49,700 nt of DNA from Escherichia coli (GTDB lineage: Bacteria; Pseudomonadota; Gammaproteobacteria; Enterobacterales; Enterobacteriaceae), in assembly GCF_003334255.1 (NCBI RefSeq), contig NZ_QOWU01000038.1. One strand, given 5' to 3'. Made by a program: the position numbers and the translations under genes. A model generated the notes under the pieces. It did not search any database. It saw nothing but the letters and a program-made list of their open reading frames with translations, and had not been told where the DNA came from. Numbering within the stretch: position 1 is the stretch's first letter; every line of letters begins with the position of its first letter. This document shows positions 1-44,801 of the stretch, piece after piece.

Positions 1-2
1 AG

Positions 3-368
3 CTGATAGAAACAGAAGCCACTGGAGCACCTCAAAAACACCATCATACACTAAATCAGTAAGTTGGCAGCATCACCCTAGTTGCCAAACAATTAGTGCA
101 GGCCTGCCAACCTACAGAAGAATCATTAATGCCGATTGTGAGCCGCCTTGATGCAGAAAATCGTTGTCCACTGGAAGCATTAATTATTCGTCGATTATTA
201 ATTCAGGCGGCGAATTTTACCGAGAAGCAAACTGTTGAACCGGAGCCGCAACCGCAGCCAATGCCCGTTGACGATGGTGGGCCAGGCTGTCTGGGCATCA
301 TTAAAATTATTTTCTATATTTTTATCTTTGCTGGTTTGATAGGAAAAATACTCCATCTGTTCGGGTGA
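3..368 (+). pseudogene. djlB: 3' region of a DjlB-like J-protein paralog, with an in-frame TAA at 60-62; downstream frame 96-368 encodes a DjlC-like C-terminus with a hydrophobic tail
   Basis: Frame-3 translation 63-368 (..[64 protein letters not shown]) parallels the DjlC C-terminus encoded at 1738-3189 (..[55 protein letters not shown]). The same frame is open from nt 3 but hits TAA at 60-62; the track ORF starts at GTG 96. Confidence 0.5.
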
Positions 369-1033: not shown

Positions 1034-1741
1034 ATGAATAAGGAAGAACAATATCTTCTTTTTGCGCTTTCTGCGCCCATGGAAATACTTAATCAGGGTT
1101 GCAAACCCGCGCATGACTCGCCAAAAATGTATACTGGGATAAAAGAATTCGAGCTCTCATCATCCTGGGGAATAAATAATCGTGATGATTTAATTCAGAC
1201 TATTTATCAGATGACTGATGATGGTCATGCCAATGATTTAGCTGGCTTATATCTGACATGGCATCGCTCTTCCCCTGAAGAGTGGAAAGCATTAATTGCT
1301 GGTGGCTCGGAGAGAGGGTTGATTTATACCCAATTCGTTGCCCAAACCGCTATGTGCTGTGGGGAAGGGGGAATCAAAGCCTGGGATTATGTTCGAATGG
1401 GGTTTCTGTCACGGGTCGGTGTGCTCAACAAGTGGCTGACGGAAGAAGAGAGTTTATGGCTGCAATCGCGCGTCTATGTACGAGCTCACCATTACTATCA
1501 CAGCTGGATGCACTATTTTTCCGCCTATTCGTTAGGACGTCTCTACTGGCAATCTTCTCAGTGCGAAGACAACACTTCGCTACGCGAGGCGCTAACCCTG
1601 TACAAATACGATAGCGCCGGGAGTCGTATGTTCGAAGAGCTGGCAGCGGGAAGCGATCGTTTCTATGCCACGCTTCCCTGGCAGCCATTAACTGTCCAGT
1701 CTGAATGCCCGGTAACGCTTAAGGATGTGAGCGACCTATGA
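1034..1741 (+). CDS. ybeU: Conserved protein of unknown function (YbeU/YbeR family)
   Basis: 235-aa ORF; its stop TGA 1739-1741 overlaps the ATG of the next gene (ATGA). Confidence 0.8.
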
Positions 1742-3189
1742 AAACATGTTGGCAAATCCTCGAAATTGAAAGCACGACGCAAATAGACATTATCCGCCAG
1801 GCTTATCTTGCTCGCTTACCGTTGTGTCATCCCGAAACCGATCCGCAAGGGTTTAAAGCATTACGCCAGGCCTATGAAGAGGCCCTGCGACTGGCGGTAA
1901 ATCCTGTCGAGGAAGCAGATGATGAAGAAAAAGATGCTGCCGCTGAACATGAAATACTACGTGCATTCAGGACATTACTGGATTCAGAAAGTGATCGTTT
2001 TCAGCCTTCCGCCTGGCAGAAATTTATTCAGCAATTAAATACCTGGAACATGGAGGATGTCGATCAATTACGCTGGCCGCTGTGTGCAATCGCCATAGAA
2101 GCGCGATATCTTTCATTAAATTGTGCTTCTTTGCTGGCAGAGCGTTTGAACTGGCATTCATTTAATGACAGCGAAGGAATGGATGAGGAAGAAAGGGAGG
2201 CTTTTCTTGAGGCCATTCAGGCTGGTGATTGTTTCGATTTCCTTAGCCTTCTGGAATATCCCATTGCGTTGCAGAACCAGACTGTTGAGTATTACTTCGC
2301 GCTGGAACGTTGCTGCCGTTACCATCCTGACTATGTCACTGCGTTTTTGGCGATGGAAGGTCCGTGGTTAATTCCTGATGATGCAAAGTTACATCGCAAA
2401 CTGTTGCGCTGGTACAGCTCGGTGCAAACAGGTATGGCGGAACTCATTCCTGTCGCTCAACAGTGGCAAACGGAAGAACCAGAAAGCGAAGATGCCCGGT
2501 ATTACTTGTGTGCACAACGTTTGTACTGCGGCGAGGGGGAAAGCCTGCTTGCCGATCTCTGCGCGTACTGGGAAAGTTACCCATCTACACAAGCTGATAA
2601 TTTGTTGTTGCAGTGGAGCAAGCGTCATTGCCCGGATTATTTCGCGTTATTAGTGATGGTTATCGAAGCGCGGAGCATGGTAGATGCGCAAGGTCAACCG
2701 CTGAAATATGTTCCTGGTGAGAGCGCCCGGACGCGGCTGTTATGGGCGGAGATTTTACATAGCGGAAAATTATCGCCGTTAGGTCAATCGTTTATTGAGT
2801 CGTTATTCTTCAAGCGCAAAGCATGGGCGTGGTGGAAATCGAGAGTCGGTAGCGAGACAGAGCAAGATTCACCGTTCCTGGATTTGTATCGGGTAGCGGA
2901 ACAGGTAGTACTTGAAGCGTTTCCGAAACAAGAGATGCTGGCCCGTCTTAATACAAGGCTGGAAGGCGGAGATGCTCATCCATTAGAGGCCATTGTCACC
3001 CGGATGCTTTTGACGAAAGTGAAACTCGAGCCGGAGGATGAAGATGTCGATGAGCCAACACCTGAAAATCATGAAGAAAAAAATGATGAGGGTGAAAAAC
3101 CACAGAGCATTACCAGCATTATCAAAATCAGTTTAACGGTGCTGGTGATAGGTTATGCTCTCGGCAAAATCGCGATGTTGTTTAGCTGA
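1738..3189 (+). CDS. djlC: J-domain co-chaperone partner of HscC, with C-terminal hydrophobic tail
   Basis: 483-aa ORF; N-terminal J-domain-like region (..[33 protein letters not shown]..); acidic linker; C-terminal hydrophobic segment [17 protein letters not shown]. Confidence 0.85.
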
Positions 3190-3248: not shown

Positions 3249-4919
3249 TTATGGGATCTCAATGGCTAAATAATCGCTCGCCCGCCGCCGAACTTCATCC
3301 ACGCGGGCCATATCGTTTGACTGCAACGCCGCATCAAAATCGGTGATCACCCGGCCGATCTCTTCTCGCTCGTCACCCAGCGCCCGCGCCCACAACTCTT
3401 CCAGTTTGGCTTTAAAGGTGCGATTGATGAGCATATCGCGCGGATAAATTTTCAATGCGGATAACCGCGTCCGACTCTCTTCAATCTGCTGCGCGCTCAA
3501 TGTTACCGGGCTGTGGTTAATCACTCTGGACTTAACGCTGCCGTCTTCCAGAAGCACGTCAACTTCAAGCAACCCGTTGATATCATAACTAAAGCGAATA
3601 TCAATCGACTGATAAGCCCCGGTTTTCTTCAACGGCACATCGAAGGATTCCACCAGAATGTTGTTTTTAACTTTGTGGTTTTCTCCCTGATAGACGTTAA
3701 CCGTAATTGAATCCTGTTCCGGGTGCATGGTTGAATAAGTTTCTACACGCGACACGGGCACAGTGGTGTTTCGTTCAATAATCGGCGAGAAAATGCCGGA
3801 AACGCCCTGGCGGTTAACTTCAACGCCCAACGAGTAAGGGCAAATATCAGTGAGGATTACCTCTTCAATATCTTCACTGCGTAAGCGGCAGGCGGCCTGG
3901 ATTGCTGCGCCCAGCGCGACAATGGTGCTCGGATCGTAACTTTGATACGGTAATTTGCCAAACAGACGCACGGCGATTCGCTGCACCAGCGGCATTTGTG
4001 ACGCGCCGCCAACCAGCACCAGACTGTCGATTTGACTCGGCTTCAGACGCGCATCGCGCAACGCCTGTTCAATCGGCACTCGCAAGCGATTGAGCAGCGG
4101 CAACCACAAATCTTCCAGTTCGTTCTCGTAAAATTCGCATTCCCGCGTTTCTTCCTGATACTGCCAGCGAATGTGCAATGGCGATTGATTGCTACATTTT
4201 GCCGCTTCCACACAGGCGTACAAGGCTGCCAGTTCACTCTCGTTAAGCGTGGTCCTGGCGACATCCGCGCGTTTTAAAACCTCATCGACCAGCATATGGG
4301 TAAAATCTTCGCCACCAAGAAAGTTGTCGCCAGCGGAGGCGTGAACTTCAATCACCGGCGTGGCGTACTCAAGCACCGTAACGTCAAACGTGCCGCCACC
4401 GAGATCAAACACCAGCGAACGGGTATTTTGTTGGGTATGCAGGCCATACGCCATCGCAGCTGCTGTGGGTTCATTAATTAAGCGTACCGCATTTAACCCG
4501 GCTAACTCCGCTGCTAAACGGGTATGCTTGCGTTGTTCATCGCTGAAATAAGCCGGAACGGAGATCACCACATCTTTAATCGGACGTTGCAGAAATTCTT
4601 CGGCATCTTCTTTTAATGAGCGTAATACCAAAGAGGACAGTTCTGGCGCGTTAAATGTGTCGCTGCCTAACCGCCAGTTGGTATTACTGCCCATTGCACG
4701 TTTAAATAACGCTGCCGTTTTATCCGGATGCGAAGTACGCCGTGATACAGCCGGTTTTCCGACTAAAATATGATTATTTTCATCCATGCTAATTATGGAT
4801 GGTGTTAAATATTCACCGAACTTATTTGGAATTAATTGCGCGGCACCGTCTTTCCAGACGGCAATTAAACTATTGGTAGTACCGAGATCGATACCAATGG
4901 CGAGTTCTGCATTATCTAT
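3249..4919 (-). CDS. hscC: Atypical Hsp70-family chaperone; conserved N-terminus is encoded upstream of the first ATG but no canonical in-frame start codon exists
   Basis: Track ORF 3249-4787 (512 aa) starts at an internal Met. The same frame continues upstream as QDINAIDNAELAIGIDLGTTNSLIAVWKDGAAQLIPNKFGEYLTPSIIS-MDENNH.., carrying the Hsp70 phosphate-1 motif IGIDLGTTNS. An in-frame TAA lies at 4958-4956; between it and 4787 there is no ATG, GTG or TTG, only ATA codons at 4928-4926 and 4919-4917. Confidence 0.8.
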   Translation of the reverse strand: MDNAELAIGIDLGTTNSLIAVWKDGAAQLIPNKFGEYLTPSIISMDENNHILVGKPAVSRRTSHPDKTAALFKRAMGSNTNWRLGSDTFNAPELSSLVLRSLKEDAEEFLQRPIKDVVISVPAYFSDEQRKHTRLAAELAGLNAVRLINEPTAAAMAYGLHTQQNTRSLVFDLGGGTFDVTVLEYATPVIEVHASAGDNFLGGEDFTHMLVDEVLKRADVARTTLNESELAALYACVEAAKCSNQSPLHIRWQYQEETRECEFYENELEDLWLPLLNRLRVPIEQALRDARLKPSQIDSLVLVGGASQMPLVQRIAVRLFGKLPYQSYDPSTIVALGAAIQAACRLRSEDIEEVILTDICPYSLGVEVNRQGVSGIFSPIIERNTTVPVSRVETYSTMHPEQDSITVNVYQGENHKVKNNILVESFDVPLKKTGAYQSIDIRFSYDINGLLEVDVLLEDGSVKSRVINHSPVTLSAQQIEESRTRLSALKIYPRDMLINRTFKAKLEELWARALGDEREEIGRVITDFDAALQSNDMARVDEVRRRASDYLAIEIP

Positions 4920-5002
4920 TGCATTTATATCTTGAAAGAAAAAGAGATAAACAGATTAAGACCACCCAGGTAACGCGTGGTGATCTTAATCAATGACGTG
5001 TG

Positions 5003-5938
5003 TTAAGCGTAAAATTTCAGACGATCAGCCAGTAAATCAACAAAGCCCTGACGATCAACATCGACCATTACGGTGGCATTCGGTTTATTGCCTGTCAGAT
5101 AATAATAATCAACAACCGTCATACCCTGGGTATATTTCCCCTGTGTTTCCACGCCAACCCAGCGCTCAACAGAGGTAAATAACTCCGGTTTCAACAGCCA
5201 GGCGATGGTGCATGGGTCATGCAGTGGTGCGCCGACAAAGCCCCATTTTTCGTCTTTATGATATTCGAGGAAGAAATCCAGCAGTTCGGCAACAATGGTT
5301 GAAACAGGGTTACCAATCGCGCGGAAACGCTCGGTGTCTTCAACGTGGATTTGTGCTTTATGAGTAACATCCAGACCGGCCATCACCACCGGGATCCCTG
5401 ACTGGAAGACAATTTCTGCCGCTTCCGGGTCAACGTAAATATTAAATTCAGCCGCAGGCGTCCAGTTACCCAGCCCCATAGCGCCACCCATAATCACGAT
5501 ACGGGCAATTTTGCTATGCAGTTCCGGATGGCTATTGAGCAGCAAGGCAACGTTAGTTTGCGGTCCGGTAGACACAATGGTGACAGGTTCCGCACTTTCA
5601 CGCAGCGTTTTCGCCATCAGCTCTACCGCCGTACAGTTTTGCGGTGCGAATGTCGGTTCCGGTAATGCCGGGCCGTCGAGACCGCTTTCGCCGTGCACAT
5701 TGTCCGCGATAATCAACTCACGCATTAACGGTTTTACCGCGCCGCCTGCTACCGGAATATCGGTGCGATTAAGCAAGGTCAGCATACGCAGAACATTGCG
5801 TAAGGTTTTTTCTGGTGTCTGGTTTCCGGCGGAAGACGTAATTGCTTTGACATCAAGCTCTGGTGAGGCGAGGGCGAGAACTATTGCGATAGCGTCGTCA
5901 TGACCTGGGTCGCAATCTAACAGAATTGGCAGTGCCAT
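5003..5938 (-). CDS. rihA: Pyrimidine-specific ribonucleoside hydrolase (IU-NH family)
   Basis: N-terminal [12 protein letters not shown] nucleoside-hydrolase motif; start refined to ATG 5938 (311 aa), preceded by AAGGAG; the track ORF adds 11 codons upstream. Confidence 0.9.
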
Positions 5939-6055: not shown

Positions 6056-6781
6056 TTAATGCAGGATTTTCGCGAGGAAGTCTTTTGCGCGGTCCGATTT
6101 CGGATCATCGAAGAAAGCGTCTTTCGGCGAGTCTTCGACAATTTTACCCTCGTCCATAAAGATCACCCGATTCGCCACTTTACGGGCAAAGCCCATTTCG
6201 TGGGTCACCACCATCATGGTCATTCCTTCGTTCGCCAGTTCCACCATCACGTCCAGTACTTCGTTGATCATCTCCGGATCCAGCGCCGATGTCGGTTCGT
6301 CAAACAGCATCGCAATAGGATCCATACACAACGCGCGAGCGATTGCCACACGCTGCTGCTGACCGCCGGAAAGCTGCGCCGGAAACTTATTGGCGTGAGC
6401 AGAAAGCCCGACACGCTCCAGCAGTTTCAGGGCTTTTTCACGAGCCGGCGCTTTATCGCGTTTAAGCACTTTCACCTGCGCCAGGGTCAGGTTTTCGATA
6501 ATCGACAGATGAGGGAACAGCTCGAAATGCTGGAATACCATCCCGACGCGGGAACGCAGCTTTGCCAGATCGGTTTTCTTGTCGTTAACCACGATACCAT
6601 CGACGGTGATTTCACCTTGCTGCACCGGTTCGAGGCCGTTGACGGTTTTAATCAGCGTTGATTTGCCGGAACCAGACGGGCCGCAAACCACCACCACTTC
6701 GCCTTTTTTCACTTCGGTTGAGCAGTCGGTCAGCACCTGAAAGTGACCATGCCATTTTGAAACATTTTTCAGGGTAATCAT
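6056..6781 (-). CDS. gltL: Glutamate/aspartate ABC transporter ATP-binding subunit
   Basis: Walker [13 protein letters not shown] signature LSGGQQQR, Walker [12 protein letters not shown]. Confidence 0.9.
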
Positions 6782-16756: not shown

Positions 16757-16831
16757 TGGCTGGGGTACGAGGATTCGAACCTCGGAATGCCGGAATCAGA
16801 ATCCGGTGCCTTACCGCTTGGCGATACCCCA
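16757..16831 (-). tRNA. glnV: tRNA-Gln (anticodon CUG)
   Basis: Minus-strand 75 nt: TGGGGTATCGCCAAGCGGTAAGGCACCGGATTCTGATTCCGGCATTCCGAGGTTCGAATCCTCGTACCCCAGCCA; anticodon loop TTCTGAT, encoded CCA end. glnV and glnX are identical so the symbol is nominal. Confidence 0.9.
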
Positions 16832-16878
16832 ACAAATTGGTTTTGAATTTGCCGAACATATTCGACACATTCAGAATT

Positions 16879-16955
16879 TGGTGGCTACGACGGGATTCGA
16901 ACCTGTGACCCCATCATTATGAGTGATGTGCTCTAACCAACTGAGCTACGTAGCC
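16879..16955 (-). tRNA. metT: Elongator tRNA-Met (anticodon CAU)
   Basis: Minus-strand 77 nt: GGCTACGTAGCTCAGTTGGTTAGAGCACATCACTCATAATGATGGGGTCACAGGTTCGAATCCCGTCGTAGCCACCA. Confidence 0.9.
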
Positions 16956-40644: not shown

Positions 40645-40812
40645 TTAATTTACCTTTCCTGATGTGAATGAAGGTGAAGATATTCTATCCAGGAAATACG
40701 GTTGAACTGTGAAGGTGATCAATAAAAAATGATCAATCTTAATTTATTTAATGATGAGCTTTTTACTCAGTAATATAAAATATTGAATTGTTATTTTTGT
40801 GTGTTGTTTAAG

Positions 40813-40877: not shown

Positions 40878-41555
40878 TCAAAGCATAAACCGATAGCCAA
40901 TACCGGTTTCAGTAATGAAATGGCGTGGGCGGGCGGGATCCTGTTCCAGTTTTTGTCGCAGATGTCCCATATAAATACGCAAATAGTGACTGTGTTCGAC
41001 CGCGTTTGGCCCCCACACCTGGTTAAGGAGCTGGCGCTGGGTGAGTACTTTTCCGGCATTGTTGAGCAGCACCGCCAGCAGGCGGAACTCAATTGGTGTG
41101 AGATGCACCTCTTCCTCACCCCGGTGAATCACGCGGGCGGCTAAATCGACGGTAACATCGGAAAATTTTACCAGCGGATCGGGCGCGGTGGTGGCAGAGT
41201 GGCGGCGTAATGCGACGCGCAGACGGGCCTGCAATTCGCCAATGCCAAACGGCTTACTCAGATAATCATCCGCTCCGGCATCCAGCGCGGCGATTTTGTC
41301 GCTCTCTTCGCTGCGTGCGGAAAGCACAATCACCGGCACCGCGCTCCACTGGCGCAGGTCGCGGATAAACTCAATCCCATCACCATCGGGCAGGCCGAGA
41401 TCGAGAATAATCAAATCTGGCTTACGGGTTGCCGCTTCCAGCAAGCCGCGTTGCAGCGTTTCGGCCTCAAAGACGCGCATCCCGTCGCCCTCCAGCGCCG
41501 TGCGCAGAAAGCGACGAATAGCCTGTTCATCTTCAACAATCAGAACGTTTGTCAC
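40878..41555 (-). CDS. kdpE: OmpR-family response regulator of the kdp operon
   Basis: 225 aa; receiver domain (LIILDLGLPDGDG) plus winged-helix; GTG start 41555-41553 overlaps the kdpD stop (ATGTGA). Confidence 0.9.
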   Translation of the reverse strand: MTNVLIVEDEQAIRRFLRTALEGDGMRVFEAETLQRGLLEAATRKPDLIILDLGLPDGDGIEFIRDLRQWSAVPVIVLSARSEESDKIAALDAGADDYLSKPFGIGELQARLRVALRRHSATTAPDPLVKFSDVTVDLAARVIHRGEEEVHLTPIEFRLLAVLLNNAGKVLTQRQLLNQVWGPNAVEHSHYLRIYMGHLRQKLEQDPARPRHFITETGIGYRFML

Positions 41556-44236
41556 ATATCCTCATGAAATTCTTCAAGTTCAGGGGCAGTTTGCTGGGGA
41601 AGTGTAACACGAAAACAGGCACCACCTTCCGGTCGGTTGAACGCGGTAATAGTGCCCCCGTGTACATCCACTATCGCCCGACAAATTGCCAGTCCAAGCC
41701 CTACCCCCGGTACTGCCGACTCTTTATTCCCGCGAGCAAACTTATCAAATATCGTCTGCTCCTGGCCTGGCGGAAGACCGGGGCCGTTATCCCAGACATC
41801 CAGTTGTAGATTTTCGCCCTCAACGTGGGCATCGATACCAATTTCGGCCTGCGCACCCGCATATTTCACCGCGTTCTCCAGCAGATTAATCAGCACCCGT
41901 TCAAAGAGTGGCCCGTCAACGTGGATTAAGGTCAGCGGTTCTGGCAGAGAAAGATTGATGGGCGACGATAAACCCGGTTCCAGCATTTGCAGCGCGCTGC
42001 CGACTACTTCTTCCAGCGTTAACCACTCTTTCTTCAAATTAAAGCCGCCGGACTGAATTCGCGCCATATCCAGTAGATTATTCACCAGTCGGGTAGTGTT
42101 CAGCACATGCTGACGGATCTCGCTGGCCTGGCGGGCGTGGGGTGATCCTTCGCTTGCCAGATCGAGCGTTAAGATTTCTGCCTGACCAAACAGCACCGTA
42201 AGCGGCGTGCGTAAATCATGCGAAAGCGCCGCCAGCAGGGCGTTGCGGATCTGTTCACGTTCGCTTGCCATCCGCGCCTGTTCTTCGCTGGCGGTTAGCG
42301 TCAGCCGCTCAAGGGCATTGGCGACTAACAGCGTAAACGTCTCCAGCAGGCGCTGCTGTTCCGGGATCATCAACTGGCGCAGATTCCCCGGCTCCACCAC
42401 CACCAGCCCGTAGGTTTTCTCGCCGCTTTTTAGCGGCAAAATCTGGTACGGTACACCGGGTAACGTGTCGGTGCCCGCGCCCGCAGGCAGGCCTTTATCA
42501 AAACTCCACTGCGCGATGGCATCGTCCCACGGCGTCATTCCTTGCGGATGTGTTAACGGCTGCAATTTACCGTTGTCATCGGGCAACAACACCTGACTGC
42601 GGGCATGAAACGTGGAGGCAATAAATTGTTCGCTGGTGGCAGCGATATCCTGCGGACTGCGGCCCACCGCCAGAGCTTTCGACATTTCATATAAGTGCCG
42701 TGTGCGTTGCTCGCGGTAACGGGCTACCCGCGCCTGATAACGCACGCCAGCAGTAAGGTTCCCGATCACCAGCCCGACGGTTAACATCACCGCGAAGGTC
42801 AGCAGATATTGCACATCAGAGACGGCGAGCGTGCCGCGTGGGGCGATAAAAAAGAGATCGAAACTCACTACATTAATGACGGTGGCAACCACTGAAGGCC
42901 AGCGTCCATAAAATAGCGCCACCACCACCACGCCAAGCAGATACAGCATCACCAGGTTGGCGGCATCAAACGCCATCAGCCACTGCATGGCAATTAAGGT
43001 GATAACGGCGCATAACGCGGCGGCAACCACGCATCCCTGAATTTGTACACGCCACTTGTCTTTAAAAGAGCGGTTATCCGGCGCGTTGTTAATCGTGCGG
43101 GCGGGTGGTTCATCAAGCGCGACCAGCACCTGATCGAGATCGGGGGCGATGCGCGCCAGTCGGTCAGCAAACGTTTCCCGACGCCACCAGCGGCGCGAGG
43201 CCGGGCGACCGAGAATAATCTTGCCGAGATTATGTTCACGGGCATAACGCACTACCGCTTTCTCTTCCGCTGGATCAGAAAGTGTTGCCGTCTCCGCGCC
43301 CAGTTCCTGCGCCAGACGTAAGGCGCTGAGAATTGCCCGACGTTTTTTTTCCGGTAAGCGGTGCAGGGCAGGGGTTTCAACATACACCGCGTGCCAGACG
43401 CTACCCAGCCGTGACTCCAGCCGCGCCGCTGCGCGGACCAGTTTTTCGCTGCCGGTGTTATGGCCGATGCATAAAAGGATCGCGTCGCGCGTGTGCCACA
43501 CTTTCTCTTCGCCAGGATGCCCCCGCCAGGCGCGCATTTGCTCATCAACGCGATCGGCAGTACGGCGCAGTGCCAGTTCGCGCAGGGCGATCAGATTACC
43601 TTTGCGGAAAAAATGTTCAATGGCGCGCTCCGCCTGCCCGGCAATATAGACTTTGCCTTCTTTCAGCCGCTGGCGCAGATCGTCCGGGGGCAAGTCCACC
43701 AGCACCACGTCGTCGGCGGCATCGAAAAAAGGATCGGGCACGGTTTCCCGTACCTGAATTCCGGTGACGCCGCTGACCACATCATTCAGACTTTCCAGAT
43801 GCTGAACGTTGACGGTAGTGAAAACATCAATGCCAGCTTCCAGCAGTTCTTCGATATCCTGCCAGCGTTTGGGATGACGGGAACCTGGCGCATTACTGTG
43901 CGCCAGTTCGTCCATTAAGATCAGCGCCGGGCGGCGGGCGAGGGCGGCATCGAGATCAAACTCGCTGATATGCCGCCCACGGTACGCCTGGCGTTTTAAC
44001 GGCAGAACAGCCAGCCCTTCCAGCATGGCGGCGGTATCTTTTCGCCCGTGGGTTTCTACCACGCCAACCACAATATCCAGCCCTTGCGCCCGCAGTCGCT
44101 GGGCTTCTGCCAGCATCGCCCAGGTCTTCCCGACGCCTGCACAGGCACCGAAGAAAACTTTCAGCTTCCCCCGATGCGGCGCGGCAGTTTGTTCCAGCAG
44201 ACGATCGGGGTCGGGACGTAAGGGTTCGTTATTCAT
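41552..44236 (-). CDS. kdpD: Sensor histidine kinase KdpD
   Basis: Start refined to ATG 44236 ([16 protein letters not shown].., 894 aa); N-terminal KdpD domain with Walker [10 protein letters not shown], four TM helices, H-box LSHDLRTPL, HATPase_c. Confidence 0.9.
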
Positions 44237-44801
44237 CAAGTTTATCCAGCGCCAGATTGAGTTCAACAATGTTGACAACCGGCTGGCCGATATATTTCAC
44301 CTGCGGTTGTTGGCTGTATTTTGCGATCAGTTGCGTGAGCTGTTCAACGCTGAGATTACGCGCTTTCGCCACGCGTGGGATTTGCCAGGCCGCCGCTTGC
44401 GGGGTGATATTATTGTCCAGCCCGCTTGCCGATGCCGTCACCAGTTCAACCGGAACGCTCGCGCTGGCATCCGGGTTAGCGGCCCGTAATGCAGCAACGC
44501 GTGCGGCTATTAGTTTATCCAGCTCAGGGTTACTGACCGCCAGATTGCTCCCGCCAGAAGCCTGTGGATTATAGGGCATTTCTGCCGTTGCCGACGGGCG
44601 ACCATGAAAATAGCCGTTGCCGGTAAAATTCTGCCCGATTAATGCCGAACCGCGCACCGTATCACCTTCACGAATCAACGAACCATTGGCCTGCCAGGGA
44701 AACCACCATTGCCCCAGTACGGTGGTCAGCAGCGGGTAAACGCCGCCAGTAATCAATAACAGAAAGATAAATGTTGATAATGCCGGACGTAATCCACTCA
44801 T
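44229..44801 (-). CDS. kdpC: K+-transporting ATPase subunit C
   Basis: 190 aa from [27 protein letters not shown]. Confidence 0.9.

Follow-up and report, generated by a model that had tools for sequence, protein, structure and literature searches.

An ATA codon in place of the hscC start codon in an Escherichia coli lineage that includes Symbioflor 2 strains

The hscC locus and its reading frame

The window analyzed here is a stretch of 49,700 nt of Escherichia coli DNA (contig NZ_QOWU01000038.1, assembly GCF_003334255.1), in which the gene order gltL-rihA-hscC-djlC is that of K-12. In K-12, hscC (ybeW, Hsc62) encodes the third Hsp70 of E. coli, a 556-aa protein served by the co-chaperones DjlC and DjlB, and lies at the same locus with the same neighbors, rihA and djlC. 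The window differs from K-12 in that codon 1 of hscC is ATA instead of ATG and in that djlB is interrupted by an IS1. The features of the locus are listed in Table 1.

Table 1. Positions of hscC, its start region and adjacent features in the window
Feature	Position	Strand	Remarks
IS1, terminal 77-78 nt	1..78		Copy interrupting djlB
djlB, 3' remnant	79..368	+	Second J-domain partner of HscC; about codon 380 to stop; abuts IS1 end
djlC	1738..3189	+	J-domain co-chaperone of HscC; intact, convergent with hscC
hscC coding region	3249..4919	-	RefSeq annotation in ATA-carrying genomes; 556 codons plus stop
First canonical in-frame start, ATG (Met45)	4785..4787	-	512-aa mechanical ORF 3249..4787
Codons for AIGIDLGTTNS, Hsp70 phosphate-1 loop	4869..4901	-	5' of the first ATG; corresponds to DnaK from residue 4 on in the alignment
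Out-of-frame mini-ORF ATG-CAA-TAG	4916..4924	-	Arises from the start-codon SNP, which turns TGG into TAG; read from sequence
ATA in place of the ancestral hscC ATG start	4917..4919	-	SNP base at 4917
rihA-hscC intergenic region	4920..5002	-	A/U- and pyrimidine-rich
TAA closing the hscC frame upstream	4956..4958	-	In frame, 13 codons ahead of the ATA
rihA	5003..5938	-	Upstream neighbor of hscC, same strand

Read on the minus strand from the in-frame TAA (4958-4956), the hscC frame translates as S*SVYLFFFQDINAIDNAELAIGIDLGTTNS..., and no ATG, GTG or TTG occurs in it before the ATG at 4787. An open frame of this kind had been described in the first-pass annotation, and the frame reading confirms it, with the count of 57 codons between stop and ATG corrected to 56 sense codons. 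From the ATA to the stop, positions 4919..3252 of the minus strand make up 556 codons, and neither a frameshift nor an internal stop is present in the hscC ORF of the window. The gene is identical to that of K-12 J53 in 555 of 556 codons, codon 1 being the sole difference across its length.

Started at the ATA, HscC is matched by the Pfam HSP70 model (PF00012) at residues 7-81 (model positions 1-74) and 86-539, and its residues 7-99 align to DnaK 4-96. The Hsp70 domain thus runs from the N-terminal phosphate-1 loop onward, and orthology to K-12 HscC is given by the codon identity together with synteny with rihA and djlC. Among the NCBIfam models, only those for DnaK and HscA matched, all of them below their cut-offs, and no HscC-specific model was in the output, so that HscC is identified by its Pfam match and its near-identity to K-12.

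These alignments also bear on where translation begins. As position 1 of the HSP70 model and DnaK residue 4 both fall at residue 7, and the upstream stop lies 13 codons ahead of the ATA, the start must lie in a stretch of about 18 codons, of which only the ATG at 4919 is a canonical start codon in other E. coli. The ATA at 4919-4917 had earlier been put forward as the only sensible start; its homology to the ATG of other E. coli upholds this choice, but the codon is not without company, as the in-frame alternative starts of table 11 also include ATA at 4928-4926, ATT at 4898 and ATC at 4892.

Almost no credence is given to translation from Met45 (ATG 4787) as the source of a working 512-aa protein. 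This ATG is the first canonical in-frame codon and is the start reported by the mechanical ORF finder, but the protein that it opens would begin at about position 45 of the DnaK profile and would be missing the stretch that matches DnaK 4-41, with the GIDLGTTNS phosphate-1 loop in it. Furthermore, no Shine-Dalgarno (SD) sequence lies ahead of Met45 (+1.3 kcal/mol), and the upstream start is the one in use in all other E. coli. That the 512-aa form is without the phosphate-1 motif, as was noted at first, is borne out by the profile, DnaK and Pfam alignments, and this form is considered non-functional.

Distribution and inheritance of the ATA codon

The hscC start was surveyed by exact-match k-mer counts in RefSeq's 5,426 complete E. 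coli genomes. The start region is present in about 4,404 of these, with the exact ATG 61-mer in 3,773 and the exact ATG 33-mer in 4,397, while the exact ATA 61-mer or 33-mer occurs in three (G1/2, G6/7, and G8). ATA is not the conserved codon at this site (3 versus 4,397 of about 4,404 genomes), and these numbers indicate that ATG is ancestral, that the initiation region is almost invariant, and that the ATA allele is derived and rare. A metagenome contig collection contained no exact match to the ATA 33-mer, which gives no sign of the allele circulating outside this lineage.

Alignment to reference genomes had been suggested as a check on the initial reading. Over 151 nt, the codon at 4917-4919 is ATG in K-12 J53 and O157:H7 and ATA in the window and G1/2, and all other columns are identical. 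Two bases in 5.5 kb separate the window from K-12 J53, one of them 4917, where the minus-strand base is A in the window and G in nearly all other E. coli. Of the origins considered in the first-pass annotation, a point mutation from ATG to ATA is the one favored by ATG in both references and in 4,397 of the roughly 4,404 complete genomes bearing the locus. The ancestral canonical start has been replaced, and no in-frame canonical alternative preserves the HscC protein. In the literature on the hscC start codon no description of the ATA allele was found, the deletion list of strain DGF-298 being the only relevant item, and AUA is not mentioned in a paper on start-codon selection (PMC5622118).

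Symbioflor 2 is a probiotic of six strains, three of which are those with ATA; G1/2, G6/7, and G8 come from one healthy donor, have been stored separately since 1956, and have the plasmids pSYM10 and pSYM12 in common (PMC4358396). The window represents a fourth relative that is identical to none of them. Between the window and G1/2, 8 of about 47,000 aligned bases are different, and 17 of the 22 differences between the window and K-12 are common to G1/2, including that at 4917, the other 5 being private SNPs of the window. The window is further set apart from G1/2 by a different IS1 layout, a shorter tRNA array, and the absence of one IS1 found in G1/2. Over about 47 kb, private SNPs number 5 in the window and 3 in G1/2, and the mix leans to transversions.

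The A at 4917 is present in all three separately assembled complete genomes. With the window, ATA is thus found in four non-identical assemblies of one lineage, and from these sequences an inherited SNP, not a base-call error, is by far the best reading. If the true base were G, hscC would begin with a normal ATG. Such a sequencing or assembly error would involve a single base, and the three matching complete genomes all come from one sequencing project and might have a systematic error in common, but the same base recurs in four assemblies that differ from each other elsewhere, and the site (GCAATAGATAATG) is outside a homopolymer run and without a GATC or CCWGG methylation motif. The base-call error admitted as an option in the first-pass annotation is therefore very unlikely.

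RefSeq annotates hscC in G1/2, G6/7, and G8 as a gene of 1,671 nt encoding 556 aa with ATA as its start, and the product carries K-12's own accession, WP_000367875.1. NCBI table 11 permits ATA as an initiator, which would account for the gene being annotated as intact and without a flag. Since the ATA start is annotated in this way, hscC receives the same protein accession as in K-12, and an unflagged ATA start is an example of how annotation can hide a likely knock-down.

Initiation signals and expected HscC synthesis

The 20 nt that precede the hscC ATA form an anti-SD duplex of -0.7 kcal/mol at best, compared with a median of -2.4 kcal/mol for random 20-mers of the window, -5.4 kcal/mol for gltL, and -6.8 kcal/mol for djlC, in agreement with the earlier remark that no obvious SD precedes this codon. 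Without an SD, initiation would lean even more on the codon itself. A consensus scan of 4700-5300 gave no promoter or terminator on the hscC strand. The sequence TATAAAT just upstream of the hscC start is a possible -10 element, for which the scan gave no matching -35/-10 pair; if TATAAAT were a -10 box, the hscC mRNA would have a very short leader or be leaderless.

With a strong RBS, the near-cognate codons AUA, AUC, AUU, and CUG initiate at 1-2% of the level of AUG, and in single-copy NanoLuc constructs the same four codons reach 0.02-3% (Hecht et al., bioRxiv 10.1101/063800). Even in the wild type, HscC is too scarce to be detected by quantitative proteomics, at under 0.1 uM (PMC8215388). 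The missing SD and the published efficiency of AUA together point to a strong knock-down of HscC, and near-zero HscC is expected in the ATA lineage.

We consider it probable that the hscC ATA is an inherited start-codon SNP that makes hscC strongly hypomorphic, amounting to a silent knock-out, and that possibly marks the first step toward a pseudogene. A single inherited G-to-A transition at 4917, arising in an ancestor shared by the window genome and Symbioflor 2 G1/2, G6/7, and G8, would have turned the hscC ATG into ATA and left the rest of the gene unaltered. Full-length HscC would now depend on the initiator tRNA pairing with AUA, with a mismatch in the third position and no help from an SD, and its synthesis would fall to a few percent or less of a wild-type level that is itself very low. 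Most likely, the ATA allele almost silences an otherwise intact hscC, and the drop in expression presumably came without selective cost.

Two points speak against a knock-down: the hscC ORF is without a second lesion or visible decay, and RefSeq treats the gene as intact. At a divergence of about 1.7e-4 per site, about 0.3 further substitutions would be expected in 1.7 kb, so that an intact ORF says little either way and is not evidence of function.

The remainder of the HscC system and the population at large agree with a knock-down of a gene whose loss carries no obvious cost. Deletion of hscC leaves viability unimpaired, its only consequence being sensitivity to Cd2+ and UV (PMC8215388). 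About 19% of the 5,426 complete E. coli genomes are without the hscC start region; in UTI89, rihA directly adjoins ybeL and the whole hscC-djlC-ybeU-ybeT-djlB-ybeR-ybeQ block is absent, and in the reduced strain DGF-298 the hscC block was deleted deliberately (PMC10652928). In the window, djlB, encoding the second J-domain partner, is broken by IS1 at about codon 380. In G1/2, IS1 breaks djlB at codon 195 and an adjoining deletion runs into ybeU: djlB codons 1-195 lie on one side of the IS1, ybeT is gone, and a 159-bp piece of ybeU is left on the other side. The lesions in the hscC start codon and in djlB, two in a chaperone system of three genes, are consistent with relaxed selection, and G1/2, G6/7, G8, and the window relative are probably without a working HscC system. 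In O157:H7 strain 9.1_Anguil, djlC is an annotated pseudogene with an internal stop, which is another independent lesion in the HscC system.

An alternative is that AUA is a real start providing enough HscC, the change being either tolerated or favored as a means of lowering expression, like the AUU starts of infC and pcnB. AUA initiation is measurable in E. coli (bioRxiv 10.1101/063800), wild-type HscC is needed in trace amounts only, and, as it is normally very scarce, a few percent of the normal amount might still matter under inducing conditions. The fully intact hscC ORF, the RefSeq annotation of ATA as its start, and the apparent persistence of the allele while its lineage diverged by several SNPs per 47 kb are likewise compatible with a functional start. 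However, the codon is confined to 3 of about 4,404 genomes, all from strains of one probiotic product and a single donor (PMC4358396), no SD or other compensating feature accompanies it, the partner gene djlB is inactivated in the same lineage, and nothing points to selection for the change. On balance, we regard functional initiation at AUA as improbable, though less so than a sequencing error.

The same SNP has a second effect in the start region. In K-12, an out-of-frame ORF of 19 codons begins at the ATG at 4924; in the window, the SNP cuts it down to ATG-CAA-TAG. Three ATGs lie within 15 nt at 4910-4924 of the K-12 minus strand (ATGCAATGGATAATG), two of them out of frame with hscC. Ribosomes ending at AUG-CAA-UAG could in principle re-initiate on the overlapping AUA and restore appreciable HscC, which would make the site a natural case of near-cognate coupled initiation on an SD-less leader, with HscC kept useful. 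What suggests this is the geometry, with the ATG at 4924, the TAG at 4918-4916, and the ATA at 4919-4917. Against it, the mini-ORF has no SD ahead of it either (-0.7 kcal/mol), and bacterial re-initiation normally still needs a canonical start codon. Coupling of this kind is thus highly unlikely, and a start-codon SNP that strongly lowers HscC synthesis remains the preferred explanation.

Near-cognate starts have precedents in E. coli, where infC and pcnB have conserved AUU starts, that of infC being regulatory. The hscC allele resembles them in having an AUN codon at the start of a full-length conserved protein, and its AUA would likewise be read by the initiator tRNA at low efficiency and be subject to discrimination by IF3. 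In contrast to the conserved starts of infC and pcnB, the hscC ATA is a private SNP of 3 in about 4,404 genomes. Another parallel may be sought in phr, ldrA, and ydfQ of DGF-298, which are start-codon-loss alleles arising from deletions and are flagged as pseudogenes (PMC10652928). As in hscC, the canonical start is lost in a gene that is otherwise recognizable, whereas hscC has undergone codon replacement and, annotated as an intact gene, keeps the K-12 accession WP_000367875.1. The hscC ATA is an ordinary start-codon mutation, a familiar event in a dispensable gene that involves no new mechanism, and current understanding is not challenged by it. The allele is nonetheless a natural substrate for measuring AUA initiation at an SD-less chromosomal site.

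Other differences in the window

Within gltL (minus strand), codon 11 carries a private C at 6751, where G1/2, G6/7, G8, K-12, and O157:H7 have T. The change replaces Tyr11 of GltL by His. Residue 11 precedes the Walker A motif GPSGSGKST by 23 residues, which we take to be the position of the aromatic A-loop residue that stacks on adenine in ABC transporters. The 33-mer with this C is found in 0 of the 5,426 complete E. coli genomes.

The tRNA array is shortened in the window, with only tRNA-Gln(CTG) and tRNA-Met(CAT) present at 16757-16955, compared with seven tRNA genes in G1/2 (Met-Leu-Gln-Gln-Met-Gln-Gln) and six in the J53 annotation. About 506 bp are missing from this region relative to G1/2, which reflects either the collapse of repeats during assembly from short reads or a genuine deletion by recombination, with loss of the tRNA-Leu gene. 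The IS1 stub of 77-78 nt at the start of the window has a length resembling the k=77 contig end of a short-read assembler.

An IS1 located between kdpE and speFL in G1/2 is missing from the window (at about 40755-40762). In kdpD (41552-44278), the window has an intact ORF where G1/2 has an annotated internal stop.
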